Notes: generated from the sequence alone by a model not told the origin. 64,000 nt of DNA from Candidatus Babeliales bacterium (GCA_018062405.1 JAGOSF010000005.1:34720-98719); one strand, 5' to 3'; numbered from the stretch's first letter, positions 41,054 through 63,999 are shown. Program-made: numbers and translations.

Positions 41054-44000
41054 ATGATTCTGCCAAGGAGTGTGATGATAGTTTTACAGCGACTTTTATG
41101 CATAATTGCTCTTTTTCTATACGGTAGCTTGGCTCAAGGGGCTGCAAACACTCCAGGTCGACAGGGAAAGCTTTTTGTTCCAGAAAAGACTGCTACAATT
41201 TCAGTTGAACATAAAGATCCAGTTGATCGTAATAAAAATCAGACTGTAAAAACTGAAAGTCGTGGCAAACCTGAAAATTTGTCGGCGCCAGACGCTGTGA
41301 AAGCAAAATCATCAATGGCAATACCAACACGGTCTGAAATAGTAACGAATAGATCAGAATCTAAGGTAAAAGATCCTGCTGTAGAAACAACTTCTAAAAC
41401 TTCTCAGCCAGTAAAAAATTCTGAATCAACTCGATCTTTAGATTTGCGCGAAGGCTTTGGTGAAACAAAATCTTCTGCACAGCCGCAGCCTATTAAAAAA
41501 TCATACTCTATAATCGATCTAAAAAAAATTGAAGCTGATCATCCTGTCCAACGGCTTGAAAAGGGTAAAGAAATTCGTTTTAATGAGCGCATGACAGATC
41601 CAATTGATATATATGTGCAAGCTCTAGAAAAAGCACCACAATATAGAAGTTTAGCAAAGCAAATTCCAGAAATTTTTGCTTCCTATGTTTTAGAGTTTTT
41701 TCAAAAGCAGTCAGGAAATACTGGATTTTTTGGAGGCCTTAAGAGTTTTTTTACAGCTTCTCCTGTTTATAGTCCAGAGCAATTAGTAAGAAGGTCTTAT
41801 GATTGGATAAATTTAACTGATTTTAATGCTGATTTGCCAAATCTTTATATGGGGATGAAAACTTTAAATGGTTTATTTGAATCTAATGTTAAAATTTATG
41901 ACCGTGCTGCAGAAAGCGGTAATCGTTTTATGGACGTTGATATGAATGTTTATGTCGAAGCTTTACGGCCTCAATTTCCTCATGTTCCAAATAAAATTTT
42001 AGAGTTGTATGTTACAACTTTCCTCAATGATCCTGCAAATCAAAAGTATGAACAAAAAAAAGAAGCAAATTTTTTGGGAATAAAAAGAAATGTTAATGAT
42101 CTGACAAAGCCAATAGCAATGACGCCAGAATATATTGCAAGTAAGACTCAAGGAGAGTTGGTTCGTGATAAACTTTCTGGATTAGAAATGCCAATAAAAG
42201 ATAACGTATTAGATGTTGTAGAGTTAAAGAATTTTCAAAAAATATATCTTACGATGAGAGCTATAGAAAATATTAATAGTAGATATCTATCAGAATATCG
42301 ATCAAAAGGTGTTGAAGGTGGGGTTGAATTGCAACCTCAAAAATCATTAGAGAATAAAATAACTGCAGCAATTGCATCTCCTGGATCTGTTGAAAGTTTT
42401 TTCTTGCGATGTGGAATTCCAAAAGAAAAGATGACAACATTCACGACTGAACAAATTAATCGGTCGCGTGATGCATTACAAGAAAATTATCCATCATTTG
42501 AAAGACTGAAAGATCTTACTCTCAAAGATCCTGTAGCATTTGACCAGTTGCAAATTGATTATGTTAATATCAATCAAGATATTATAGCTATAAAAAATAG
42601 ATATGGCTTTTCAAGTGATCAAGTTTTAACAACAATTCAATCTCCTAAAAATATTAGAGATAACGTTCAAAATTTGGTGGTGCAAGCTCAAAATTTAAGT
42701 AGAAATATGAATCAACTTATTGTCGATAGAAAAGTAGCCGATTTTTTTGAAAATTCATTGCCATCAGCAGAAAAAGATTTTTCTTTAGACAATACATTCA
42801 CTGTAACAAAAGAGTTGTTTAAGGATAACGCTTCTCTTCCAGAGTATTTAAAGCAACAGCAAAATCAAATTAGAAGTTCAATTAGTTCTGTTTTAAGTGG
42901 GATTCAGGATAAAATATCAAATTTACACGAGAGTGCGTTGGTTGAAACAACGCTTCCTGATTTGATTGAAAAAGCTGAAGTAGAATTGAAGTCCGCTGAG
43001 AATAATGCTCTAATTTCTGATCAGAGTAAACTCACCTTTCAAATTACAAAAGGATTTGTTGAGCAGTTAAAATTGAATTTAAAACAGCTTGAAACAAGTA
43101 GGAAACAATTAGAACAACAAGCAGAACGTATAATTAGAGAAGAGTTGCCTGATAGTTCATCTTCCCAAGATCGTGGTGCGGTTGTTGTAAAAATGTTAGA
43201 AAAATTAAAGCAATCTTTATCAGATCGTAAAATTTCTTCAGATCGTAAAATTGCTAGTGAAGTTGAAAAATTAGTTGAATTGTATAAAAATGAAGAATTT
43301 GAATATCAAGATATTCCTAAATTGAATCAAAAAATTAGAGAGTTGCTTGAAAAAAATAAAGATAATCAAGCTTTGAAACTTTATAATCAAGTTTTTTCAC
43401 AGTTAGATAGAATATTAGAACCTTATCAAGCATCAATTCAGCGTGAACATAAAGTGAATGCTCAAACGAAGTTGTATGTGGATAATATTTTAGATTCGAA
43501 TGTTTCTATTAACGATGCTATAAAAACTATTGAAAAGAAATTAACGGAATTAAACACAAATAAAGACGTTAATCTTACAAGTGCACAAAATGATTTAAAT
43601 AAAATTTTAGACAACAAGGACCGTGCCTTGCCTGATGGTATATCTAAATTTAGTATAAAAGCTAAAGATAATCTTGGTGATATTTATAATAAAATTTTAA
43701 CTGAGCTTAAAGAGCGTAAAAGAGTGCAAAATGAAGCAAGCTCTGCTTTCCAATTGGGTAATAATCTTTATGGAATTTTTCATAATCTATACGAACTTGA
43801 GGGAAGGCAGGCTGGTTCTCATGCTTTAGGAGCTGGGTGGAATACACCAGGCGCAGCAGTTGAAGTCGCAGGGGTATTGACCACATATGTTGATACTACT
43901 TTGGGTAAGGTAAAAGATAAATTGGATCCAAAAACGTTATTTGCAATTGCGGCAGTTATTACAGCAGTTTCGACAGCTTTAATACAAATTCAACAAAGTA

Positions 44001-44383
44001 ATGGATCTGCAGATGAAAAAAGAAAAATGCAAAATGATGTACTTGGAGCTATGATGGCAGATATTGGAAATTTAGTGATTGCAGATCAGACAGGTGCAAC
44101 TGTTGATGTTGTTGCTTCTGGTGATGCTCAGGCTATAGCAACCAGTGGTTTCTTTAACAAAGCTATTAATATGCTCAATCCAGAGGCTCAAACTAGTTTT
44201 AGTTATGACTCTTCAGTAACAACTCCTGGCTACGTCAGCAATGTGAGTCGATTTCAAAATAAAAATGCTGCAATTCTTCAGAATCAATCATATCCTCAGA
44301 GTAGTAGCAATAATGCTGTGAGTGGTTATAATCGTGCACCAGTAGTTTATAATCCTTATGATTCGTATGAGTATCCTTATTGA
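41054..44383 (+). CDS. Large secreted coiled-coil hypothetical protein (1109 aa)
   Basis: Signal-like N-terminus, low-complexity linker, helical Lys/Glu/Gln body, C-terminal hydrophobic segments. Confidence 0.85.
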   Translation: MILPRSVMIVLQRLLCIIALFLYGSLAQGAANTPGRQGKLFVPEKTATISVEHKDPVDRNKNQTVKTESRGKPENLSAPDAVKAKSSMAIPTRSEIVTNRSESKVKDPAVETTSKTSQPVKNSESTRSLDLREGFGETKSSAQPQPIKKSYSIIDLKKIEADHPVQRLEKGKEIRFNERMTDPIDIYVQALEKAPQYRSLAKQIPEIFASYVLEFFQKQSGNTGFFGGLKSFFTASPVYSPEQLVRRSYDWINLTDFNADLPNLYMGMKTLNGLFESNVKIYDRAAESGNRFMDVDMNVYVEALRPQFPHVPNKILELYVTTFLNDPANQKYEQKKEANFLGIKRNVNDLTKPIAMTPEYIASKTQGELVRDKLSGLEMPIKDNVLDVVELKNFQKIYLTMRAIENINSRYLSEYRSKGVEGGVELQPQKSLENKITAAIASPGSVESFFLRCGIPKEKMTTFTTEQINRSRDALQENYPSFERLKDLTLKDPVAFDQLQIDYVNINQDIIAIKNRYGFSSDQVLTTIQSPKNIRDNVQNLVVQAQNLSRNMNQLIVDRKVADFFENSLPSAEKDFSLDNTFTVTKELFKDNASLPEYLKQQQNQIRSSISSVLSGIQDKISNLHESALVETTLPDLIEKAEVELKSAENNALISDQSKLTFQITKGFVEQLKLNLKQLETSRKQLEQQAERIIREELPDSSSSQDRGAVVVKMLEKLKQSLSDRKISSDRKIASEVEKLVELYKNEEFEYQDIPKLNQKIRELLEKNKDNQALKLYNQVFSQLDRILEPYQASIQREHKVNAQTKLYVDNILDSNVSINDAIKTIEKKLTELNTNKDVNLTSAQNDLNKILDNKDRALPDGISKFSIKAKDNLGDIYNKILTELKERKRVQNEASSAFQLGNNLYGIFHNLYELEGRQAGSHALGAGWNTPGAAVEVAGVLTTYVDTTLGKVKDKLDPKTLFAIAAVITAVSTALIQIQQSNGSADEKRKMQNDVLGAMMADIGNLVIADQTGATVDVVASGDAQAIATSGFFNKAINMLNPEAQTSFSYDSSVTTPGYVSNVSRFQNKNAAILQNQSYPQSSSNNAVSGYNRAPVVYNPYDSYEYPY

Positions 44384-45174: not shown

Positions 45175-45626
45175 GCCCAGTAATCTTTGGTTTGTTCCAA
45201 GATCACTGGGATTTTTTTGGTAAAGAATTGTGAGTTTTTGCCTTGTTTCAAGGATGTTTTATAAATTTTTTGAGAGATTTCTAACATTTCTAATGAGCAT
45301 TGATTTTCTTGAATCGCGATTATAAATTTTCTGCTGTGCATATTGATTTGTAGTTGCACAAAAACTTTTTGTCAGGTATTTATGCATGCAAAATCGATTC
45401 TATAAGCTTTTCTAGGCGTAAGATCGAAAGATAATCACCGGTTTTTGTGCAAATTTTTCACTGACAAATAGAAAGAATTGTTTTTTTGATCGTGACAAAA
45501 AATAAAATTCAGATTAAAATCGCATCATTGATCTATAGCTTATTTTCGAGCTTTTCTTTTTGACTTTGTTTGGAAATAGGTTCACCTTGAATTAATAATA
45601 ATTTTTTAAACAAGGTGGATTTTCGT

Positions 45627-48581
45627 ATGAATTTTGTATGGATGTTATTATTTTCAATATTTGTTTCTTCTTCTCTTTTTTCGTATGATCAATCGTATAA
45701 TAGGTTTGTCATACAATCAAATTTTATGCATCCATTTAGCTCTGATCAATCAACAGGCTTGTCTTCCTCTTTAACAAATCCAGCAGATGTATCGACAAGT
45801 ACGGTGATGGCATCGATAAATCCAATGATGCACATAGGTGTTGCTAACTATGGCGCTGGATATACTCAGGATTTGCAGCGCCATTATGAAAATCACGCAA
45901 AAGCTCATTTCTTAAAAAATCAAAAATATGCTTCGACTGGTTTTTCGCTCGAAGAGAAATTACGTAGGTTGCCAAAGAGAACGACATTTCCTTTTCAGGC
46001 TGCTTATAACAAAGATGGGATGGTCGCAACAAATAAGCATGGTGATCTATTAGATAATAAGGGTAATAGATGGGTTTTAAGCCCTGATGGAACAGAATGG
46101 GAAATAAGTAATAAATCAAGACAATTATTAAAAAAAGAAAAAGCTAACATTCCAGATTCAAAGAAAACAGATTTTGTAGAAACACCTCAAAATAGTAGAA
46201 CTATAGCTGTTATGGAATCGATGTTGTCGGCAATCGTCTTGGCAAATACAAACTTTTATGAGGCAAATTTTGATGGAATGTCAGCTGATTTTTTTACCAC
46301 ATTTCAGGAGTTGCAAAATAGTTCATTGAATCATGAAGAACGTAGTGTTCTTACGAGTAAGCTTAATTTTCAGATGATGCATCATTTAGTGAAAACTGGT
46401 CAGATACATCGTGGAATTATTAAAAAATATGAAAAACATCCATGGGCAATCCATAAAGATCTGACCGAGGCTGATTTTTCAGAACAATGCATGGCTAATT
46501 TTATGCTTGATTCGATGGCCTTTGCAGAAAATGATACAACTATAGAAATTGCACAAGCTGGATTGCGTGAATGGACAGATGGTATTCAATCGAAGACAGA
46601 AGAAGAATATTTGTATCATATGAATCGATCGAATCAATATTATGGGTCTTTGCGAAAGCAGTTACCGACTCACTCAATTACAGATTATGCTCAACCGATG
46701 GATCAAACCATTGCCATGATAGATGATTTTTTTGAAAAATATGCAGCGACAGTAAAAGAGTATTATAAAGATGCAATCGGAGAATTAAGTGATCTTGAAC
46801 AAGAACATTTACATAGAATTGAAAAGCGTTTAGATGCTTTAGAAAAATCAAAAAAACAGGTGAGACCTGAAAATCGTGTGCAACAAACGTATGCAATGAG
46901 CCCTTGCGCACAAGCTTTTTTTATGGAGCACAATTTAAATTATGCAGCATTCAATGGTGGTGTTGTTACCGATTTTCAACATTGTTTAACACAAGAAGTT
47001 TTAGGAATTATAGAATCGTCAGTTGAAATGGTTCGTTCTCATCATTATGAATCGATGATAAAGAATTTTACGATACATAATTGCCAGCTTGCAGTGTCTG
47101 GACAGCAATTGAATCAGTTAGCTCGGTTAAATGAAGCTGTAGCAGTCATTGATTATAGTCATTTTTTTGAAAATATTGCGCGGTTTATCTATGGCGATAA
47201 ATTGTATGGAGCTATGGACATTGGGGCGGCTAAATCATTAGATAAATGGATGGTGTTTGCCTATAAGTTAGGATCTGATCCAAAGGCAACGGTTAAAGAT
47301 TTAGCAGAAGATTGTTTGCGTATGGGTGAGGGTTTGTGTTTTGTTGCAAATTTTGTTCACGATGTAACTCCATTGCGCTACGTTACTGACTTGGCACGAG
47401 AACTGGTATCAGATCCATCTGAAGATGAGTCGGTTCAATTTGCAAGAATTGTGAAAAGGGATGAAGAACGGACAGAACGAAGTAGAAAAACAATTAAGGC
47501 TGGTTTGGTTGCAGCAGATAACATTATTAAAGGAATTGTAAAAAAATCTGTACATGAAAATTTGGTTGATGCCTCGGAATTTGTTTGCGATCTTGTGTTG
47601 ACTGATAAAATCACCCAAGGCTTTTTTAAATTAGCCCATTTTGTAGGTAAATCTGCATTGCAAGCAGGTAACGCAATGCAAAATATGTTACCACCAGAAT
47701 TGATGGATAGTTCTCTTAAACTTTCAACCAATGCAGGTGAAGTTGTTGCTGTTTTTGCTGAAACAGGAGAAACTGTTAGTTCAGTTGCAGCGGCTGCGCA
47801 AGCTGCAGAACGTATCACTCAGATTGCGGGTAATGTTACGCGAGCAAAAGATCTATTGGATGGGTTAAAGGATTTGTTGCAACCTGATCCAGAAAAGCTT
47901 ACTGAATTTCAAAAAACGATTGAGCCTTATTTGCGACAAGATAAACTGGTTAATGTTGATCGATTGCGTTCGATAGAAGGAGTTGATCAGGTTCAGAGAT
48001 TTAAAGATTATACAAACAATTTTCATCCAGATGAGCTTGCAAAATTAAAACCAGAAGAGATTTTGTATCTTAATTTGTGTGATTGGCTTGCACCGAAAGC
48101 AGATATAATTAATGCGGCTTTAAAGAAAAAAGGTGGTATAAGAATTGTCGATTCTGTAACAGGGGTTGAAGCCTATTATGAAAAATATGATTTGTTTCAT
48201 TCTTTGCTTGGTGAAATGTCTCCAGGTGCAGTAGCAAATAGAACTAGCGGAGGTCATTTGATGATTCCAGAATTGAGAGGAGCTACGCTTAAAACTGGCA
48301 AGGTTATACCAATTGGTCATGGCTTTTTTGATATCGATATTCAGTATTTAGGTAAAGAATCTGCTAATTATAAAAAGAATTCAGTTTATCCTTTGGGGAC
48401 ATTGCTAGAGGAGTCTGTAGAAATGCTAGAAAAAGCTACTGAAATATGTACAGAAATTAGTATTGAAATTAATCCTAAAAATTCTTTACAGCAAATTGTA
48501 AAAATAAAAAATAAAAATAGTCAAAGCTTTTACATAAGAATTGAAAATAAAATCGCTGAATTTTATCCAGGAAATATATAA
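45627..48581 (+). CDS. Full-length polymorphic toxin: signal peptide, unknown delivery region, EndoU-like nuclease C-terminus
   Basis: MNFVWMLLFSIFVSSSLFS signal. C-terminus FHSLLGE...SGGHL...KKNSVYPLG...EESVEMLEKA...EFYP fits the bacterial EndoU toxin pattern. Followed by a small immunity-like gene and homologous cassettes. Confidence 0.8.
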   Translation: MNFVWMLLFSIFVSSSLFSYDQSYNRFVIQSNFMHPFSSDQSTGLSSSLTNPADVSTSTVMASINPMMHIGVANYGAGYTQDLQRHYENHAKAHFLKNQKYASTGFSLEEKLRRLPKRTTFPFQAAYNKDGMVATNKHGDLLDNKGNRWVLSPDGTEWEISNKSRQLLKKEKANIPDSKKTDFVETPQNSRTIAVMESMLSAIVLANTNFYEANFDGMSADFFTTFQELQNSSLNHEERSVLTSKLNFQMMHHLVKTGQIHRGIIKKYEKHPWAIHKDLTEADFSEQCMANFMLDSMAFAENDTTIEIAQAGLREWTDGIQSKTEEEYLYHMNRSNQYYGSLRKQLPTHSITDYAQPMDQTIAMIDDFFEKYAATVKEYYKDAIGELSDLEQEHLHRIEKRLDALEKSKKQVRPENRVQQTYAMSPCAQAFFMEHNLNYAAFNGGVVTDFQHCLTQEVLGIIESSVEMVRSHHYESMIKNFTIHNCQLAVSGQQLNQLARLNEAVAVIDYSHFFENIARFIYGDKLYGAMDIGAAKSLDKWMVFAYKLGSDPKATVKDLAEDCLRMGEGLCFVANFVHDVTPLRYVTDLARELVSDPSEDESVQFARIVKRDEERTERSRKTIKAGLVAADNIIKGIVKKSVHENLVDASEFVCDLVLTDKITQGFFKLAHFVGKSALQAGNAMQNMLPPELMDSSLKLSTNAGEVVAVFAETGETVSSVAAAAQAAERITQIAGNVTRAKDLLDGLKDLLQPDPEKLTEFQKTIEPYLRQDKLVNVDRLRSIEGVDQVQRFKDYTNNFHPDELAKLKPEEILYLNLCDWLAPKADIINAALKKKGGIRIVDSVTGVEAYYEKYDLFHSLLGEMSPGAVANRTSGGHLMIPELRGATLKTGKVIPIGHGFFDIDIQYLGKESANYKKNSVYPLGTLLEESVEMLEKATEICTEISIEINPKNSLQQIVKIKNKNSQSFYIRIENKIAEFYPGNI

Positions 48582-48592
48582 GGAAATTTGTA

Positions 48593-49117
48593 ATGATTAT
48601 AAAAAAATATCAAACATATAAATATAAAACTATAAGTTATTTTGTAGTTGAGCGATTTGGAGAAGATATGTTTTATTTACATATGTTTTTATTAAATTGT
48701 TTTGGATATTTAAGAAGAAAGAATAATTTAGAGTTTAAAGAAGAAATAAAAACTATTTGTGAATATGGTATGACGTTTGATAATGCCGAGATTAGTATAG
48801 ATAATGAAAATAATATTGTATATGTTATTGAAAGCTTTTATGACTATCGTAGTAGGCCAAAAACGCCAAAAATAGAAGAATTACTTGAAACAGAAAATTT
48901 TATAGAGCTTTGTAAAATGGGCTTTTTAAATTATATAACAATGACAAGAGATAATTTTATGCATTTGTTGTTAACTTGGAATAAAATTTTAGATCAATTA
49001 CCACCATTTGCTTTGTTGTACCAAGATGATAAAGATTGGTATGATATATTGTCATTCGACTCAAAAGAGGCTATGGATAAGTTTTTAGCTGATCACACAA
49101 AAAAAGAAACAAATTGA
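48593..49117 (+). CDS. Immunity protein 1 (cognate to the full-length toxin)
   Basis: Starts 11 bp after the toxin stop; paralogous to 50130-50657 and 51398-51940. Confidence 0.75.
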   Translation: MIIKKYQTYKYKTISYFVVERFGEDMFYLHMFLLNCFGYLRRKNNLEFKEEIKTICEYGMTFDNAEISIDNENNIVYVIESFYDYRSRPKTPKIEELLETENFIELCKMGFLNYITMTRDNFMHLLLTWNKILDQLPPFALLYQDDKDWYDILSFDSKEAMDKFLADHTKKETN

Positions 49118-49134
49118 AAAAATAAGATTTTAGT

Positions 49135-49170
49135 AAGGCACATTCCTTTTAATTGGGTGTGCCTTTTTTT
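49135..49170 (+). terminator. Cassette-boundary terminator 1
   Basis: AAGGCACATTCC-N-GGGTGTGCCTTTTTTT. Confidence 0.75.
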
Positions 49171-49178
49171 GTGCCTCT

Positions 49179-50115
49179 TTTTGTAGGTGAATCTGCATTG
49201 CAAGCAGGTAACGCAATGCAAAATATGTTACCACCAGAATTGATGAATAGTTCTCTTAAATTTTCAACCAATGCTGGCGAAGTTGTTGCTGTTTTTGCCG
49301 AAACTGGAGAAACTGTTGGTTCAGTTGCAGCGGCTGCACAAGCTGCAGAACGTATCACTCAGATTGCGGGTAATGTTACGCGAGCAAAAGATCTATTGGA
49401 TGAGTTAAAGGATTTGTTGCAACCAGATCCAGACAAGCTTACTGAATTTCAAAAATCTATTGAGCCTTATTTACGACAGGATAAACTTGTTGATGTTGAT
49501 AGTTTACGATCAATCGAAGGAGTTGAACAGGTTCAAAAATTTAAAGATTATACAAACAATTTTCATCCAGATGAGCTTGCAAAATTAAAACCAGAAGAGA
49601 TTTTGTATCTTAACTTGTGTGACTGGCTTGCACCAAAAGCAGAAATAATTAACGAGGCGTTAAAGAAAAAAGGTGGTATAACAATTATAGACCCAAAAAC
49701 AAAGAAAATTTTAGCTCATTATGAAAAGTATGATCTATTTCATTCTTTGCTTGGAGAAATGAAACCAAAGTTTATGAATAATGTTGTAAAAGGTGGACAT
49801 TTACCTATTTTAGAATTAAAAGGAGCTCTCTTTGAAATTAGCGAGATTAAACCTTTGGGAAATGGATTTTTTGATATGACAATTAAGCGAGGAAGTAATC
49901 GTAAAAAAAACTCTTTTTTTCCACTTGGAACGTCTATAGAAGAATCTGTTGCTATAATAGAAGATGCAATAATAAATTGTGAAAAAATTGAAATAGTTGT
50001 ATTGAAAGATAAGGCATTGCAAGGGTTTCATGTTGTAAATAAAAGAAATCAACAGTTTATGCTTGTGTTAAATAAGAATGAGTTACAGTTTTATCCTTCT
50101 AATATTCAGTTGTAA
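49179..50115 (+). CDS. Silent toxin C-terminal cassette 2 (alternative EndoU-like domain)
   Basis: ~500 bp near-identical to 47639-48140, then divergent FHSLLGE...KGGHL...KKNSFFPLG...FYP; no signal peptide or clear RBS. Confidence 0.8.
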
Positions 50116-50129
50116 ATGATGAGAAGATT

Positions 50130-50657
50130 ATGATTATTAAAAGTTACGAGATTTTTGTTTTAAGCTTTGATGATTTTTCGAATGTAAATATTGATTTAAT
50201 TACAAGTTCAATAAATAATACTTACTATTTAAGAATGTTTTTAGTTTATTCTTTTGGGGATGTTAGAAGAGATAATATTTTAAATTCTATAGAGAAAATA
50301 GATGATTTTTTTCAGGATGGAATATCTTTCGATTTTGTTGATATAAGTATTGATAACAATGCTAATTTAGTTTATTTAAGTGAGTCTTGGTATGATTATA
50401 AAGATAAACCAACTACCGATGAAATAGAAAAATTATTGGAAGATGCAAATTTTATAGAACTTTGTAAAATGGGGTTTCTTGATTACGCAGTTATGACAAG
50501 AGACAATTTTATTCATTTGTTATTAACGTGGAATAAGATTTTAGATCAATTGCCATCATTTGCGTTGTTGTATCAAGATGATAAAGATTGGTATAATATA
50601 GTGCCATTTGATTCAAAAGAGGCTATGGATCAATTTATAGTTGATCATGTAAAATAA
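50130..50657 (+). CDS. Immunity protein 2
   Basis: Follows cassette 2; C-terminal half nearly identical to immunity 1 (NFIELCKMGFL...DNFxHLLLTWNKILDQLP). Confidence 0.75.
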   Translation: MIIKSYEIFVLSFDDFSNVNIDLITSSINNTYYLRMFLVYSFGDVRRDNILNSIEKIDDFFQDGISFDFVDISIDNNANLVYLSESWYDYKDKPTTDEIEKLLEDANFIELCKMGFLDYAVMTRDNFIHLLLTWNKILDQLPSFALLYQDDKDWYNIVPFDSKEAMDQFIVDHVK

Positions 50658-50687
50658 AAAAATAAAAAATATTGCAGACTTTAGTAT

Positions 50688-50719
50688 AAGGCACAATTCA
50701 TTCGGTTGATTGTGCCTTT
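50688..50719 (+). terminator. Cassette-boundary terminator 2
   Basis: AAGGCACAATTC-N-GATTGTGCCTTT. Confidence 0.7.
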
Positions 50720-51390
50720 GAGCCTTATTTGCGACAAGATAAACTTGTTGATGTTGATCGATTACGATCAATCGAAGGAGTTGATCAGGTTCAGAGATTT
50801 AAAGATTATACAAACAATTTTCATCCAGATGAGCTTGCAAAATTAAAACCAGAAGAGATTTTGTATCTTAATTTGTGTGATTGGCTTGCACCGAAAGCAG
50901 ATATAATTAATGCGGCTTTAAAGAAAAAAGGAGGTATAAGAATTGTCGATTCTGTAACTGGGGTTGAAGCCTATTATGAAAAATATGATTTGTTTCATTC
51001 TTTGCTTGGTGAAATGTCTCCAGGTGCAGTAGCAAATAGAACTAGCGGAGGTCATTTGATGATTCCAGAATTGCGAGGAGCTATACTTAAAACTGGCAAG
51101 GTTACTCCAATTGGGCATGGGTTTTTTGATATCGATATTCAGTATTTAGGTAAAGAATCTGCTAAGTGTAAGACGAATTCAGTATATCCTCTGGGGACAT
51201 TGCTTGAAGAATCTGTGGAGCTGTTAGAAAAAACTCAGGAAAATTTTAAAGAAATAATCTGTGTTATAGATAAAAGTGGAAAAGCAGATGTTATGATAGA
51301 AGGAAAATTAGGTGAATTTTTGGTATGTTTATTAAAGATAATGAAGCAAAATTTTTTCCAATGAATCCATCAGCAAAATTAAGGAAGTAA
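50718..51390 (+). pseudogene. Silent toxin cassette 3 (EndoU-like, one-base frameshift near the 3' end)
   Basis: ~510 bp near-identical to 47920-48430. Adding one T to the T5 run at 51317-51321 restores ...GEFFGMFIKDNEAKFFPMNPSAKLRK* ending at 51390, just before immunity 3. Confidence 0.75.
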
Positions 51391-51397
51391 GGAAGTT

Positions 51398-51940
51398 ATG
51401 AATATTAAACAATATAAAAAATTTGAATTTCAAATTGCGTTGCAAGTTGAGTTTCAAATTGTACGTTATTCTTTATTAGAAAGGAAATCATCATATGATT
51501 ATCCAATTTCATATATAGAAATATTTTTTTCTGATGGTTTTCCTTACGTTAATCGGTATGGAGTTAAAGATTTTATAAAAGAACGTACAGAAGGAATGAT
51601 GTTTGAAAGAATTGAGCTTCATATTGATAATGAACATAATGTAGCTTATATTCATGAGCCAATAGATTTTTCTAGATCAGATATTACTCCTGAAGTTCAT
51701 CAATTAATAGAAAATGATGATATTGTAAAACTTTGTAAAATGGGATTTTTGGGATATACAGTTATGACAAAAGATAATTTATTTCATCTTTTGTTGTTGT
51801 GGGGAGAGTTTGTAGATAAAAAGGCTCCCTATATTTTAATTTATTTGGATGATAAAGATTACTATGATACGTTATCATTCGATTCAAAAGAATCTATGGA
51901 TAAATTTGTAGCTGAGCATACAAAAAAAGAAACAAATTGA
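51398..51940 (+). CDS. Immunity protein 3
   Basis: Same family (LCKMGFLGYTVMTKDNLFHLLLLW...FDSKESMDKF). Confidence 0.75.
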   Translation: MNIKQYKKFEFQIALQVEFQIVRYSLLERKSSYDYPISYIEIFFSDGFPYVNRYGVKDFIKERTEGMMFERIELHIDNEHNVAYIHEPIDFSRSDITPEVHQLIENDDIVKLCKMGFLGYTVMTKDNLFHLLLLWGEFVDKKAPYILIYLDDKDYYDTLSFDSKESMDKFVAEHTKKETN

Positions 51941-51957
51941 AAAAATAAGATTTTAGT

Positions 51958-51993
51958 AAGGCACATTCCATTTAATTGGGTGTGTCTTTTTTT
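51958..51993 (+). terminator. Cassette-boundary terminator 3
   Basis: AAGGCACATTCC-N-GGGTGTGTCTTTTTTT, copy of terminator 1. Confidence 0.75.
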
Positions 51994-52002
51994 GTAGCCT
52001 CT

Positions 52003-52608
52003 TTTTGTAGGTGAATCTGCATTGCAAGCAGGTAACGCAATGCAAAATATGTTACCACCAGAATTGATGGACAGTTCTCTTAAACTTTCGACCAATGCAG
52101 GGGAAGTTGTTGCTGTTTTTGCCGAAACTGGAGAAACTGTTGATTGTGTGATGGCATCAAAAGCCTCTATGGATCGATTTGCTAAAAACACAGGTAAAGG
52201 AGCTGGCGCGAAGCGTGCTCTTGACCCATTTGATGATACCTTGAATTCTGAACCAAAAAAAGGTACCCCAGAATGGGATAAAAAATATCCGAATGGGAAA
52301 TATGAAGGTGCTGATTATCATCGTGAGTAGGCTAAATTAAAGGAAGATTTTAAAGGGAAGTCTAAAAAAAGCCCTGCTCCTCAAGATGGTCAAGCTGCTT
52401 TAGATCGTTCATTAGAAGTTGAAGGTTCTCGTCATAGAATTACAATCGAAGATGACAAAATTGTAATTTTAAGATATGAAGGAAATGATATTTACCATGG
52501 ATATATTGTTGAAGATTTTCATTCCATAAAAGATGTTAAAATTTTAAGCACGGTTTAGTTAATAGTGGTTTGGTAAAAGATATGAAATCAGGAAAGATAG
52601 TAAAATGA
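52003..52608 (+). pseudogene. Silent toxin cassette 4 (non-EndoU toxin domain; in-frame stop plus frameshift)
   Basis: ~139 bp junction homologous to 47639-47778. Then YEGADYH...KSPAPQDGQAALDRS...YHGYI, with TAG at 52328-52330 and a frameshift at ~52540-52555. The repaired frame ends in a TGA overlapping the ATG of 52605. Confidence 0.75.
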
Positions 52609-53267
52609 AAGAATTGATTTTAAAATTAACTGAAATTGAGTCTATAAAAATTGTTTCAGATTCTGATGTTGATTTTGCAAAAGTTGATTATTGTTGTGGA
52701 GAGCTTGTAGCTTATTTTGTTTATAACAATAATGAATTCATTATAGGGCAAGCTTCAGCAGGGGATTTATGTGAAAATTTTATTGCAAGATTGCAAAAAA
52801 ATTTAAAGAATGAATTGCAGATACATGAATCAATAAAGCAAAACTTAGGTTTTATGTATAATCAGTATTGCCATCAGTTGCCACTTCTATCATCTGAATT
52901 TGTTAAGATTTTATCAAAAAGTGGCGAGTCTTCTTATTGGGTAGGATTAGATTATGATGTTTGGTCAACTTATATATCTACAAAGTCAATGTTGACAACT
53001 TGGTTATATAATGATGATAAAGGTAATATTATTTTTGAAGTGACGCCTTTATATCAATGGTCATTTTTACCAGATGAACCAGAAGATCCAGATTTTCAAA
53101 CTTATGAAGAATTCATGAAAGATTATAAGCCATTAATTACGAGAGTTATACCTCGCCAAGTTGCTATCGAATGGTTGGGTCAAGTCATGAAAGTTTATCG
53201 AGGACTATTTTCAACTGAAGAAAATTATAAAAATATGTGCAAAGAATTAGGCTGGGAAGATTGTTAG
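52605..53267 (+). CDS. Immunity protein 4 (different family)
   Basis: ATGA-coupled to the cassette 4 toxin; homologous to 38886-39485. Confidence 0.75.
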   Translation: MKELILKLTEIESIKIVSDSDVDFAKVDYCCGELVAYFVYNNNEFIIGQASAGDLCENFIARLQKNLKNELQIHESIKQNLGFMYNQYCHQLPLLSSEFVKILSKSGESSYWVGLDYDVWSTYISTKSMLTTWLYNDDKGNIIFEVTPLYQWSFLPDEPEDPDFQTYEEFMKDYKPLITRVIPRQVAIEWLGQVMKVYRGLFSTEENYKNMCKELGWEDC

Positions 53268-53275
53268 AAACTGTT

Positions 53276-53320
53276 AAAAGGCAGTGCGCAATTACCTATG
53301 AATTGCGCACTGCCTTTTTT
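53276..53320. terminator. Bidirectional terminator closing the array
   Basis: AAAAGGCAGTGCGCAATT-ACCTATG-AATTGCGCACTGCCTTTTTT. Confidence 0.85.
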
Positions 53321-62175: not shown

Positions 62176-63117
62176 CTAACTCATGTTTACCGTATTGTGT
62201 TTGTATTCCTTTATAAATGTTCGAGCCTGCTCATGAGTATCAAATCCGTGGCATTTAATCCAATCATTTTCCTCGCGATAGACAAGTGCCCAACAATATC
62301 TACTTTGCATTGTTATCCATGATTCTATTAATTCTTTATAATTTTCATATGGCATTTGCAATGTATTATTTTTATTAACATATTCAGGAATTTTATCTCT
62401 TTCTGGCATGCGCTTTGTTTTAGAGCTATCAGCCCATTCAAAAGCACCAATATGAATCAGATCTTTTTCTTTATTGTGATATATGTATTCTTCGAATATA
62501 TAACTTGGTTTTAATAAAAGATCTCCTGGTGGATAGTTTTGTGCAAAAAACTGTTGTAAGTAATATAATAAAGATGTTGCATTGTGAAATTCAATCTCAA
62601 AACATCCATGAGCTGGCTTATGCAACAATAAACATTCTTTTATTTTCCGCTGGACTTTCTCAATATCAAAAGCATAATCAGCATCTTGATATTTTTTAAT
62701 AATTATCGGATCAGTTTCTAAAGAAACATGATTGTCTTCATGAATAACTATTAAAATAATATCTGGCTTACTCACTCGTAATTTTTCCCATTCAAATACA
62801 ATTTCTGTAAAATTTTTAACCGACATTTCAAAACATTTTTCAGGATCAAGATAATCTCCTGTATAAGTCTCATCAATCGAATTTGAAACATCATATAAAG
62901 CTATAACACCTCTTTCTTTATTGATGGAAACCCAGTCACTACTTCTCATCGTTTTTGTCTCATCCATCAACCAATCAATAAGTTCTCCTGGTCTAAAATT
63001 ATTACTTAATATTTTTGACACGGGAAAAAAACGCCAATCATTTGAAATTTTATTTAAAGCTTTAAAAGTATATACGTTATACTTTATATTTTTTTGCATT
63101 ATTACACATAACTTCAT
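62176..63117 (-). CDS. Two-domain immunity-like protein (313 aa)
   Basis: Starts 3 bp after the toxin stop. The C-terminal half (MPYENYKELIESW...ALVYREENDW...FDTHEQARTFI) aligns by eye with immunities 1-3. Confidence 0.7.
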   Translation of the reverse strand: MKLCVIMQKNIKYNVYTFKALNKISNDWRFFPVSKILSNNFRPGELIDWLMDETKTMRSSDWVSINKERGVIALYDVSNSIDETYTGDYLDPEKCFEMSVKNFTEIVFEWEKLRVSKPDIILIVIHEDNHVSLETDPIIIKKYQDADYAFDIEKVQRKIKECLLLHKPAHGCFEIEFHNATSLLYYLQQFFAQNYPPGDLLLKPSYIFEEYIYHNKEKDLIHIGAFEWADSSKTKRMPERDKIPEYVNKNNTLQMPYENYKELIESWITMQSRYCWALVYREENDWIKCHGFDTHEQARTFIKEYKHNTVNMS

Positions 63118-63120
63118 AAT

Positions 63121-63999
63121 TTATTTCTCAAAATTTTTTGAGCTTGGATAAGCTGATTTAATCATATTTTTTAAATTAATAATCATTTCTATAAATAACC
63201 CATTCGGAGCTTGACACAACAATTCTTTATTAGGATCACCAACCTCAGTCAAATCATCAATTATATTTTGAGATGCTTCAAAAATAATTTGAGCTGTTTC
63301 TTTTCGCGACCAACTTGGAGAAAAAAATGTTTTTCCTTTGCATATTATTCCATTACCAAAGTCTACATCTGCCATAAAACAATCTTTGCCCTCTACCCTA
63401 TTAATAAACTTACATAATCCAGATTTTTCCAAAGCCTCCAATTCATCGTGATGAAAACCATTTAAATGGATTTCTTTTATTGTCTGATTTGTAACATCCA
63501 ATTTAACTTGCAAGCTTGGATAAAAAATATGACGCATTTGCATCGTTAAATATTTATTTTCACCACTAAATTCTTCTAATCCCAAATATTTATCTTTAAA
63601 TAATGTCTGGAGTCGTTGAATGTCATCGGTAATATATTGTGGTACGATTGATAACTCCTGACATGTATTAAAAAGATCAATTACTTCTGGTAAAGCTTGA
63701 TTGTTCATCAACTTATCATATTGATTTGCAGTGTTTTTAAACATGAGTTCTTCATATTTTTGATTCATAGCTTTAATAACATTTTTACCAGTCTCTGTTT
63801 TTGCAAAATTTTTTGATAAAGTTTCTTTTGATACTTGATAAATTGAATTTACACCATTTTTAACGACATCACTTCCAGATTGTAAAAATATTTTGGCGAA
63901 AAGTGATTGTCCTGCTGAATTGATTAAGCCAGGTTCTGTGCCAGTAATTGCAGGCACTGGTTTTGGGTTCCAACCAGTACCAACCAAGTTTCTTTGTGG
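63121..63999 (-). CDS. EndoU-like toxin C-terminal region (frame open to the window edge)
   Basis: RHIFY...NGFHH...KGKTFFSPSWSRKETAQIIFEA...NGLFI...IKSAYP; no stop between 63987 and 64000. Confidence 0.8.
   Translation of the reverse strand, partial: PQRNLVGTGWNPKPVPAITGTEPGLINSAGQSLFAKIFLQSGSDVVKNGVNSIYQVSKETLSKNFAKTETGKNVIKAMNQKYEELMFKNTANQYDKLMNNQALPEVIDLFNTCQELSIVPQYITDDIQRLQTLFKDKYLGLEEFSGENKYLTMQMRHIFYPSLQVKLDVTNQTIKEIHLNGFHHDELEALEKSGLCKFINRVEGKDCFMADVDFGNGIICKGKTFFSPSWSRKETAQIIFEASQNIIDDLTEVGDPNKELLCQAPNGLFIEMIINLKNMIKSAYPSSKNFEK

Follow-up and report, generated by a model that had tools for sequence, protein, structure and literature searches.

In the window, a stretch of 64,000 nucleotides from a Candidatus Babeliales bacterium, the region described here is with a probability of about 80% the variable 3' end of the gene for a Sec-exported polymorphic toxin in a Chromulinivorax-like member of the Dependentiae, followed by three orphan toxin-end/immunity cassettes that recombine with it (Table 1).

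Table 1. Features of the toxin gene, its cassettes and the immunity genes (positions counted from the first letter of the window)
Feature	Position	Strand	Basis
Full-length polymorphic toxin gene (main gene)	45615..48581	+	ORF, 988 aa from GTG at 45615
Junction block J1 (FVGKSALQ...AETGETV, aa 676-721)	47632..47777	+	blastn 94.6% to 51995-52141; five-way alignment
Helical linker, EPYL (aa 770, J2) to LKKKGGI (aa 836-842, J3)	47922..48140	+	sliding identity
EndoU-like RNase catalytic core (predicted), aa 843-940	48141..48434	+	PF14436 full-length match, sub-cut-off
Toxin tip 1, last 48 aa past junction J4	48435..48581	+	change-point at aa 941
Immunity gene 1 (putative), 174 aa	48593..49117	+	ORF; start 11 nt past toxin stop
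Intergenic hairpin, GGCACA...TGTGCC then T-run	49135..49178	+	directly before cassette 2; cassette-boundary alignment
Cassette 2, intact 320-aa frame	49153..50115	+	ORF, blastn
Immunity gene 2 (putative), 175 aa	50130..50657	+	ORF, alignment
Cassette 3, 5'-truncated, frameshifted	50718..51390	+	blastn, alignment
Immunity gene 3 (putative), 180 aa, intact	51398..51940	+	ORF, alignment
Cassette 4, junction block and different toxin type; pseudogene	51995..52608	+	blastn, alignment to intact C12 copy
Immunity gene 4 (putative), 220 aa, intact	52605..53267	+	ORF; family distinct from immunity 1-3
Stand-alone immunity 4 paralogue, 199 aa	38886..39485	-	alignment; tblastn 25.8% identity, E 1e-15

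The database protein for the main gene starts at 45627 and has 984 aa. The product has a signal-peptide-like N-terminus. Its N-terminal region extends over about 675 aa and is followed by a junction block, then by a helical linker and finally by a C-terminal domain that is EndoU-like. No Pfam match was found for the N-terminal region (E <= 0.1 with the 988-aa protein, E <= 10 with residues 1-661), and this region is lineage-specific. Homologues have it in common and differ in their C-terminal domains. The main gene (contig C3) is 94.6% identical to its paralogue on contig C12 over 661 aa of the N-terminal part, and the C-terminal domains of the two are unrelated, EndoU-type in C3 and type-4 in C12. 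Two relatives, P0010 and P0008, also share the N-terminal region and diverge after ..SGENIS.ALAS, the same point as the end of J1. In a five-way alignment J1 was common to the main gene, cassettes 2 and 4 and both C12 copies. It is the outermost swap depth, at which the entire C-terminal domain is exchanged. The linker, which is common to the main gene and cassettes 2 and 3, was modelled as helices (predicted structure, pLDDT 74-91). The core carries the motifs DLFH862SLLGE, GGH881 and KKNSVYP (aa 920-926); its identity to the main gene is 94-96% in cassette 3 and about 50% in cassette 2. Tip 1 is a predicted four-stranded beta-meander behind the helix EESVEMLEK (pLDDT 80-84), and the tips of the main gene, cassette 2 and cassette 3 differ from one another.

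The main toxin appears to end in a divergent RNase of the EndoU type. It aligns with positions 7-128 of the 129 of the PF14436 profile at 15.2 bits, against a Pfam gathering cut-off of 25.3 bits. PF14436 is matched by 24 of 41 relatives at E <= 1 (best E 3.2e-7), and one of the 41 also matches CoV_NSP15_C. In the alignment of these 41 sequences no variation is seen at S27, G44 and H45 and almost none at H26 (alignment numbering); H881 of the main toxin is invariant among them, H862 nearly invariant, and a K-x-N-S/T motif lies at aa 920-923. The catalytic triad of CdiA-CT STECO31 is H187/H204/K261 (PMC9086364). A profile search found no EndoU entry among PDB sequences. AlphaFold models of the toxin end reached a pLDDT of only 61-64, with the catalytic part below 50, and Foldseek with these low-confidence models gave no match in the PDB at E <= 0.001. 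Because of the low score, the poor models and the Foldseek result, the predicted fold and activity rest on the profile matches of the relatives.

The original prediction of three blocks shared between the main gene and the cassettes, each with its own breakpoint, was borne out by blastn self-comparison, in which all three were found far above chance. Cassette 4 was expected to share about 139 bp and to diverge after AETGETV, with the whole domain replaced, and this is what we found. The match joins 47632-47777 to 51995-52141 (147 nt, 94.6%, E 6e-61), its coding part, 47639-47777 (139 bp), ends after AETGETV (aa 715-721), and a different toxin domain follows. No Pfam family was found for the C12 type-4 toxin domain. 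The intact C12 paralogue of cassette 4 gave a weak phmmer match to the PDB sequence 5t87_E, 'CdiA toxin' (E 0.031, 17.5 bits, 66 residues), which takes in P.(D/N)GQ..L..S.QV and YHG. The C-terminal half of cassette 4 may thus weakly resemble a CdiA tRNase-type toxin, and cassette 4 is predicted to be of a different RNase type from the main toxin.

Cassette 2 has neither a signal peptide nor the N-terminal region. It matches the main gene from 47639-48218 to 49179-49761 (90.4%, E 0), with a block of 490 nt at 93% that ends after LKKKGGI. Identity is 90-98% to about 48110 and falls steeply at LKKKGGI (aa 836-842); the change-point of the protein is aa 843, with 90% identity upstream and 46% downstream. 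The predicted sharing of about 500 bp, the divergence after LKKKGGI and the keeping of the linker were thus confirmed. Replacement of the nuclease, which had also been proposed, is ruled out: the part past LKKKGGI is a 46%-identical, homologous EndoU-like allele with all motifs kept and a tip of its own. The P0007 toxin combines the core type of cassette 2 with a different tip.

For cassette 3, the proposed start at EPYL, near-identity through both His motifs and divergence in the last residues agree with the blastn match (47920-48434 to 50718-51232, 515 nt, 94.6%) and the change-point analysis. Its 5' end is truncated, with the hairpin fused directly to GAGCCTTAT (EPY). The block runs from EPYL (aa 770) to ..EMLEK (aa 940), 48 codons before the stop, with DLFH(862)SLLGE and GGH(881) inside it, and protein identity to the main toxin is 96% before the break and 26% after it. 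A frameshift lies at the T-run 51317-51321. The ORF as listed stops at 51364; read in the shifted frame, the cassette continues with ..FGMFIKDNEAKFFPMNPSAKLRK to a stop codon at 51388-51390, 7 nt ahead of the immunity-3 start, and the tail in this frame is similar to the tips of P0013, P0015, P0021 and P0022.

An ORF of 174-220 aa stands behind each toxin end, at a spacing from a 4-nt overlap to 14 nt, and putatively encodes its immunity protein. Immunity 1 has a variable N-terminal part and a C-terminal half conserved in the family. Its identity is 55-58% with immunity 2 and 41-45% with immunity 3, and the genome contains more than 20 paralogues of it. The C12 locus has an immunity gene with 58.6% identity to immunity 4, and further paralogues of immunity 4 lie on C1, C11, C13 and C7. 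In cassette 4, an in-frame TAG stands at 52328-52330 where the intact C12 paralogue reads CAG, and the two differ by a 2-nt indel near 52536; the original stop TGA (52606-52608) of cassette 4 overlaps the immunity-4 ATG. Copies of the GGCACA...TGTGCC hairpin lie at 50688 before cassette 3 and at 51958 before cassette 4. A fourth repeat in the blastn self-comparison (49025-49318 to 51848-52142, 92.9%) spans the end of an immunity gene, the hairpin between the genes and the first part of the following cassette.

The junctions are not unique to this array and recur at conserved islands in relatives. Some 60 relatives, Chromulinivorax-like without exception, have breakpoints and 5' ends of orphans at the same conserved islands as the array and at further ones. 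Clusters of change-points from independent pairs lie at aa 760-789, 828-843 and 941-943. The 5' ends of seven orphans, on four contigs, lie at aa 770-779 (EPYL), two orphans start after NLCDWL, and arrays of 2-5 cassettes are common. Since the orphan 5' ends of relatives lie at about ten positions, every one a conserved island, there are more than three swap depths. The proposal of a hierarchical diversification at three depths therefore stands insofar as the three junctions are genuine and recur in independent relatives, but not in the number of depths. The pattern looks like crossover wherever homology permits rather than a designed three-level hierarchy.

The blocks common to the expressed gene and the cassettes would be tracts of homologous recombination or gene conversion, and recA is present in the genome. 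Each would end at a conserved island: after AETGETV (J1), around EPYL (J2), after NLCDWL and after KKKGG (J3), past the helix before the last beta-sheet (J4) or some 35 codons inside the immunity gene (J5). A crossover in a shared block would move everything downstream to the expressed gene, that is, the tip, the core or the whole domain, so that the swap depth would be set by where donor similarity ends. The matching immunity gene would move along with the new toxin end; we infer the switching itself. Changes within the shared blocks are mostly synonymous (dN/dS 0.09 in cassette 3, 0.15 in cassette 2 and 0 in cassette 4, where 5/5 differences from the main gene are synonymous), which indicates that the blocks diverged as working coding sequence.

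It is possible, if doubtful, that the cassettes are inert leftovers of displaced toxin ends of which only the immunity genes matter now, and that the extents of the blocks are accidents of integration site or later deletion. Cassette 3 is truncated at its 5' end and frameshifted, cassette 4 has a stop and an indel, and all four immunity genes are intact; elsewhere a tip-only remnant precedes an intact immunity gene (C10:178154), and there are many stand-alone immunity paralogues. With two of the three cassettes broken, mere decay also fits. However, cassette 2 is intact, divergence in the shared blocks is of a strongly purifying type, and the junctions lie at the same sites in other genomes. 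Moreover, the block of cassette 3 has only 2 mismatches to the main gene in its central 300 nt (99.3% identity), versus 26 in the 215 flanking nt (Fisher p 8e-9), which implies a recent exchange. As an account of the present state, the leftover reading is compatible with a recombining array. Cassettes 3 and 4, being broken, are not ready-to-use alternatives, and since their toxin frames are lost and the immunity genes are intact, the array is now mainly an immunity store with one usable alternative, cassette 2.

The tip itself is supported as an exchangeable unit. In four independent tip-swap pairs, cores are 85-94% identical and tips 23-33%, with the break at one common place; besides the main gene and cassette 3, P0018/P0022, L013/L019 and L015/L016 show the J4 junction. 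One class of tip was found on two classes of core, and, conversely, cores of a single class carry different tips. The diverged tract of the four pairs starts at J4 and always covers the start of the immunity gene; identity resumes about 33 codons into this gene or near its end. Covariation was analysed in 36 toxin/immunity pairs, which stem from a small number of related metagenomes and are only partly independent. Immunity residues 1-35 followed the tip (r 0.51, partial 0.49, p 2e-4) and not the core (partial r 0.09), whereas residues 36 onward followed the catalytic core (partial r 0.43-0.47). For example, L019_3016 and L026_3 have values of 0.64 for the core, 0.66 for the tip, 0.81 for immunity residues 1-35 and 0.46-0.59 for the remainder. 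Since immunity residues 1-35 track the tip and the remainder tracks the core, an inner module appears to be nested in an outer one: the outer unit exchanged across the family would be the catalytic core with the body of the immunity protein, and the inner unit the 48-residue tip with the first ~35 immunity residues, across the gene boundary. The covariation of tip and immunity start could also arise because the next conserved island able to resolve a crossover sits within the immunity gene.

It had been proposed that the tip may set immunity specificity. If the tip alone decided which immunity protein neutralises the toxin, cassette 3 would be a re-keyed toxin 1. The main gene and cassette 3 fit this idea (tip 26%, immunity proteins 40%), as do P0022 and P0018 (core 91%, tip 33%, adjacent immunity 37%, next immunity gene 89%) and the tracking of the tip by the immunity start. 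We consider it unlikely, however: the tips of L013/L019 and L015/L016 are swapped (23-27% identical) and their immunity proteins are still 66-72% identical, the body of the immunity protein follows the catalytic core and not the tip, and the conserved catalytic residues all lie within the core. Because the immunity body tracks the core and two of the four tip swaps left the immunity proteins similar, it is suggested that the tip contributes to specificity as at most one of two determinants. The proposal may thus hold in part, with the tip not the sole determinant.

Tandem duplication without swapping, followed by point mutations that accumulated under diversifying selection chiefly at the interface of toxin and immunity protein (a model proposed for nuclease colicins), would agree with the paralogy of immunity 1-3, the similar unit boundaries and a divergence that peaks at the toxin tip and immunity start and is least at the unit ends, but is improbable given identity that falls in steps within 15-30 nt (sliding identity) and not gradually, tip and core classes in several combinations, mosaic site patterns (cassettes 2 and 3 agree at 47948-47975 and the main gene differs), dS of about 0.2 in the shared blocks beside sequence near saturation, and the fact that cassette 4 is of another toxin family, its closer copy lying on a different contig.

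Compared with polymorphic toxin systems sensu Zhang/Aravind 2012 and Jamet & Nassif 2015, the locus has one N-terminal region with unrelated C-terminal domains (C3/C12; P0010/P0008), a small gene directly downstream of each toxin end that co-varies with it (36 pairs), and orphans without the trafficking region that have 5' homology to the full gene (cassettes 2-4; relatives' arrays). Orphan cassettes behave in the same way in known systems (PMC3150448, PMC3967940, PMC4436062, PMC3482391). In Neisseria, MafB has a signal peptide, a genus-restricted N-terminal conserved region and a variable C-terminal toxin, including EndoU (PF14436), and Maf islands carry the immunity gene (MafI) directly downstream and several mafB-CT orphan toxin-end/immunity modules (PMC4436062). 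The array resembles them in its signal-peptide-like N-terminus, lineage-bound N-terminal region, predicted EndoU-type end, putative downstream immunity gene and orphan modules. However, Dependentiae is a phylum unrelated to Neisseria, DUF1020 (PF06255)/MAFB-N was absent from the main toxin (Pfam, E <= 0.1 for the full protein, E <= 10 for residues 1-661), the array motifs are AETGETV and EPYL instead of VSGDF, VKYDT or DWVKN, and junctions of the array also lie within the toxin domain and within the immunity gene.

CDI orphans lack a start and the export region, have variable upstream homology and are followed by immunity genes; CdiA-CT consists of two exchangeable parts, a helical entry domain and the toxin (PMC3150448, PMC9086364). 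Among CDI toxins, STECO31 is a tRNase of the EndoU type whose catalytic triad is His-His-Lys (PMC9086364). The orphans here are made up similarly, and the two-part CdiA-CT matches the depth at which the linker is kept and the toxin changed. Pfam found neither a TPS domain nor filamentous-haemagglutinin repeats in the 988-aa protein, the translations of the main gene and the compared proteins contain no VENN pre-toxin motif, and no cdiB-like gene was seen beside the locus. Identity falls at one motif (VENN) in CDI, whereas it falls at several nested places in the array. In Salmonella and Dickeya Rhs loci, recombination between the main gene and a downstream orphan via shared 5' homology, which joins the orphan toxin with its immunity gene to the delivery part, was shown experimentally (PMC3967940). 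An expressed gene with downstream orphans that share 5' homology is likewise found here. However, no YD/RHS repeats or RHS core were found in the main toxin by Pfam, the array toxin is much smaller, and its export is presumably Sec-dependent, unlike the type VI secretion of Rhs.

Nuclease colicins and S-pyocins have no orphan arrays; they are DNases or rRNases borne on plasmids or pyocins. According to Riley and co-workers, colicin divergence is reportedly concentrated in the immunity-binding part of the toxin and the adjoining immunity gene. Near-identical catalytic domains occur with distinct immunity proteins in these bacteriocins (PMC4548480). The array shares near-identical cores with distinct immunity proteins and divergence at the toxin tip and immunity start, whereas what varies as a unit here is a discrete predicted beta-sheet of 48 residues together with ~35 residues of the immunity protein, found in various core backgrounds. 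Overall, the locus would be an orphan array of the polymorphic-toxin kind, functioning in the manner of Maf, CDI and Rhs loci and belonging to a new family specific to its lineage. It is ordinary for polymorphic toxins save in one respect: the last 48 toxin residues appear to travel with the N-terminal ~35 residues of the immunity protein.

On its 3' side the main gene, which encodes toxin 1, has three incomplete copies of its own 3' end (the orphan toxin ends of cassettes 2, 3 and 4) and four small genes. Repeats were found by blastn self-comparison, and breaks were placed by sliding identity and by change-point analysis of the proteins. The four repeats listed in the table are not due to chance, since their E-values range from 1e-61 to 0. 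Cassette 4 parts from the main gene after AETGETV (aa 721, in main gene numbering). Cassette 2 parts after LKKKGGI (aa 842), with 90% identity before this point and 46% after it. Cassette 3 matches from EPYL (aa 770) to EMLEK (aa 940), and identity is 96% before the break and 26% after it. The three swap depths thus lie where the original prediction had placed them.

Repeats, breaks and related loci; positions are those of the window unless a contig (C) of the same genome or a locus of a relative (L) is named
Feature	Position	Strand	Remark
Main gene (toxin 1)	45615-48581	+	988 aa; database version begins 45627
Repeat, main gene/cassette 4	47632-47777 and 51995-52141		147 nt, blastn identity 94.6%
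Repeat, main gene/cassette 2	47639-48218 and 49179-49761		blastn identity 90.4%
Repeat, main gene/cassette 3	47920-48434 and 50718-51232		515 nt, blastn identity 94.6%
Fourth repeat	49025-49318 and 51848-52142		blastn identity 92.9%; spans immunity-gene end, intergenic spacer and start of next cassette
Segment with cassettes 2 and 3 agreeing	47948-47975
T-run in cassette 3	51317-51321
TAG in cassette 4	52328-52330
2-nt length difference in cassette 4	near 52536
Cassette 4 compared with C12 copy	52142-52590		identity drops at ~52411
Palindrome 3' of immunity 4	53276-53318
Upstream gene	41054-44383	+	1109 aa
Second toxin end	62176-63999	-
C12 paralogous gene	C12:105644-108271		875 aa
C12 locus	C12:105644-110316
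Third locus	C12:18418-24945	-
Tip-only remnant and immunity gene	C10:178154-178822
Two immunity-like genes after P0022	L009:10653-11684		38% (first) and 89% (second) identical to those after P0018
Two immunity-like genes after P0018	L010:4031-5068

At the junctions, identity falls stepwise within 15-30 nt. In the block common to the main gene and cassette 3, mismatches number 2 in the central 300 nt and 26 in the 215 nt that flank them (Fisher p 8e-9). In one short segment cassettes 2 and 3 share bases that differ from those of the main gene, whereas elsewhere cassette 2 is the divergent copy and cassette 3 goes with the main gene. Most differences within the shared blocks are synonymous (dN/dS 0.09, 0.15 and 0, with dS of ~0.2 in all three); they arose in working coding sequence, which is consistent with alleles joined by recombination. 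The recA gene is present in the genome.

The junctions are not special to the array of the window. The 28 further loci collected for comparison usually hold tandem arrays of 2-5 cassettes. When independent full-length relatives are compared, their change-points fall into three clusters, at aa 760-789 (around EPYL), 828-843 and 941-943; identity drops from 97% to 50% in the first cluster between the proteins P0016 and P0019, and from 86% to 33% in the last between P0018 and P0022. P0010 parts from P0008 at the point equivalent to AETGETV. Orphan 5' ends were found at aa 657, 676, 761, 789, 849, 863, 877 and 895, while seven orphans begin at aa 770-779, on four contigs (two of them related), and two at aa 827. 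The deepest truncation seen is on contig C10, where a tip-only remnant of 40 aa (aa 956), almost identical to the P0003 tip, precedes an intact 173-aa immunity gene. Each of these positions coincides with a conserved island in the alignment of the family (EPYL, EILYLNLCDW, KKGG, DLFHSLLGEM, GGH and NSYFP.GT). Therefore, the hierarchy of three depths, genuine as the depths are, is only a sample of a larger set of preferred crossover sites that recur in relatives. EPYL, not AETGETV alone, behaves like a pre-toxin boundary.

Replacement of the nuclease, which had been claimed for cassette 2, was not borne out. Past LKKKGGI, the alignment retains DLFHSLLGE, GGH, K-x-NS-FP and the terminal FYP motif; these motifs and the 46% amino acid identity rule out a different nuclease and make cassette 2 a diverged allele of the main toxin's domain. 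At the start of cassette 3, the intergenic hairpin is joined straight onto GAGCCTTAT (EPY). This cassette is frameshifted at a T-run; the other frame reads on as ..FGMFIKDNEAKFFPMNPSAKLRK*, with the stop 7 nt ahead of the immunity-3 start, which is the spacing of intact units, and the shifted-frame tail is of the same tip class as P0013, P0015, P0021 and P0022.

Cassette 4 is another toxin type (type-4 toxin). Its frame is broken by a TAG codon and by a 2-nt length difference, and its original stop would overlap the immunity-4 ATG (ATGA). An altered genetic code was rejected as the explanation of the TAG, because all neighbouring genes are normal when translated with table 11 and that codon is CAG in the intact paralogue. 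Contig C12 has a paralogous gene that is 94.6% identical to the main gene over its first 661 residues and carries an intact type-4 toxin at its end. Behind this gene come an immunity gene, which overlaps it at ATGA, then an orphan of 236 aa with a start further upstream (HEKLVDASEF...), and lastly another immunity gene. Cassette 4 and the C12 copy are ~97% identical up to the drop (after AALDRS) and ~70% beyond it, so the type-4 toxin also has an internal breakpoint. Its C-terminal half weakly matches the solved CdiA toxin 5t87_E (E 0.031). Directly 3' of immunity 4 is a 43-nt near-perfect palindrome, unlike the GGCACA hairpin behind immunity 1-3.

The first ~675 residues of the main gene gave no Pfam match, nor did either immunity family. 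The main toxin domain matches EndoU_bacteria (PF14436) end to end at 15.2 bits, below the cut-off of 25.3 bits; PF14436 matches 24 of the 41 relatives' domains (best E 3.2e-7), and the coronavirus EndoU model matches one. H881 is invariant and H862 nearly invariant in the alignment of these 41 domains. A divergent EndoU-type RNase is provisionally accepted as the best assignment. Sequence and profile searches of the EndoU-like domain against the PDB gave chance-level matches only. Two AlphaFold models (linker and toxin with 20 sequences; toxin alone with 41) had pLDDT of 61-64 and a disordered catalytic part, and Foldseek found no match in the PDB at E<=0.001 for either. Only the secondary structure of the better-predicted parts was used from them, and fold and tip-to-active-site placement are not based on them. 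The EPYL-KKKGG linker is confidently helical (pLDDT 74-91), and the tip (last 48 residues) is predicted to be a four-stranded beta-meander behind a helix (pLDDT 80-84). Promoter and terminator consensus scans gave sites fewer or no more than in shuffled controls and were not used.

The tip had been proposed to set immunity specificity. We defined a natural tip swap by identity of at least 85% in the core (the catalytic part, aa 843-940) and at most 33% in the tip, and found four independent pairs. Their immunity proteins are 40% (main gene/cassette 3), 37% (P0022/P0018, with 89% for a second, more downstream immunity gene), 66% (L013/L019) and 72% (L015/L016) identical. In nucleotide profiles of all four pairs, the diverged tract begins at one common junction (~aa 940) and extends into the immunity gene; identity is regained ~33 codons into that gene in two pairs and near its 3' end in the other two. 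Across 36 non-redundant toxin/immunity pairs, immunity residues 1-35 covary with the tip, at r 0.51 and, with the core controlled for, a partial r of 0.49 (p 2e-4), and do not covary with the core (partial 0.09). The stretch from residue 36 to the middle and the C-terminal half follow the core (partial 0.43 and 0.47) and hardly the tip (0.21 and 0.06). In the pair L019_3016/L026_3, the cores are of different classes (0.64) and the tips of one class (0.66), with 0.81 for immunity residues 1-35 and 0.46-0.59 for the rest.

The gene order is core, tip, immunity start and immunity body. The pattern is not one of plain distance-dependent linkage, under which the immunity body would be coupled with the tip, not with the core. 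It indicates that an inner unit of tip and immunity start is exchanged inside an outer unit of core and immunity body. That the tip and the immunity N-terminus form an interface is consistent with the covariation but not proved by it. A crossover finds no conserved island for its resolution between the last helix of the toxin and roughly immunity codon 35; therefore, any patch spanning the tip would also span the immunity start. Immunity residues 1-35 track the tip, but the data speak against the tip as sole determinant of specificity, since the immunity body tracks the core. Recognition may be split into two separately exchangeable interfaces, a tentative reading to which we give a probability of about 0.3: a portable mini-cassette of ~265 nt across the gene boundary (last beta-sheet and first ~35 immunity residues) would re-key the pair with the core untouched, nested in the core/immunity-body module. 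If true, two-interface recognition would be a compact natural case of modular specificity coding across two genes. The split covariation offers a concrete, cheaply testable hypothesis and a two-module recognition model.

Homologues carry the name Candidatus Chromulinivorax (Babelota, i.e. Dependentiae). The C-terminal toxin family was found in each of 3 genomes from the window's genus and in none of 11 from other genera of the taxonomic family; only 57 cluster representatives match among 1.84 billion proteins. Since this small family, confined to one genus-level group, contains many natural chimeras, it makes a neat data set for the question of which region of an RNase toxin is read by the immunity protein.

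Other loci were also noted. Across the window's genome (C1, C3, C5, C6, C8, C10 and C12), the immunity 1-3 family gave more than 20 tblastn matches and the immunity 4 family seven further ones. Many of these paralogues have no adjacent toxin gene, and together they occupy a large share of the 1.23-Mb genome. A third locus, on C12, encodes a protein of 912 aa whose EndoU-like end is 25% identical; behind it come immunity paralogues in tandem and a 161-aa orphan with its own immunity gene. Near the end of the window a further toxin is represented by its C-terminal end, which has the EndoU-like motifs HLNGFHHDE, GKTFFSPSW and SAYP and is followed by a 313-aa protein; this toxin represents a different EndoU clade, since tblastn with toxin 1 missed it. 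Upstream of the toxin locus, a gene encodes a protein whose start resembles a signal peptide and for which Pfam gave no match. The L009 locus is in a syntenic position, since it adjoins pepA and ftsW, as the toxin locus does in the window.

Dependentiae live as obligate intracellular parasites in protists and have genomes of 1.2 Mb. The literature searched contains no mention of polymorphic toxin systems in Dependentiae. This study documents such a family there, a conflict system in a 1.2-Mb intracellular parasite. So many immunity genes in a genome of this small size imply that conflict between strains is strong. Overall, what the original prediction observed holds, and its interpretation is partly supported.

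The architecture and presumed working of the system are those of polymorphic toxin systems (PMC3482391, PMC4436062). Closest in build is Maf of Neisseria, which has a signal peptide, a genus-restricted N-terminal region, EndoU among its C-terminal domains and orphan modules; however, its defining DUF1020 domain is absent from the window's toxin. CDI orphans also retain 'varying amounts' of upstream homology (PMC3150448), and CdiA-CT has two independently exchanged parts, one for entry, which is helical, and one the toxin (PMC9086364), a split that corresponds to the depth at which the linker is kept in the window's array. The CDI hallmarks, namely the TPS domain, FHA repeats and VENN motif, are not in the window's toxin. 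Recombination between main and orphan genes has been demonstrated experimentally for Rhs (PMC3967940), whose YD repeats the window's toxin lacks. In itself the orphan array is nothing unusual among polymorphic toxins, and the system belongs to a known kind, of which it is a lineage-specific variant. Less usual is how many junctions recur within the toxin domain, and that the inner unit spans the gene boundary.
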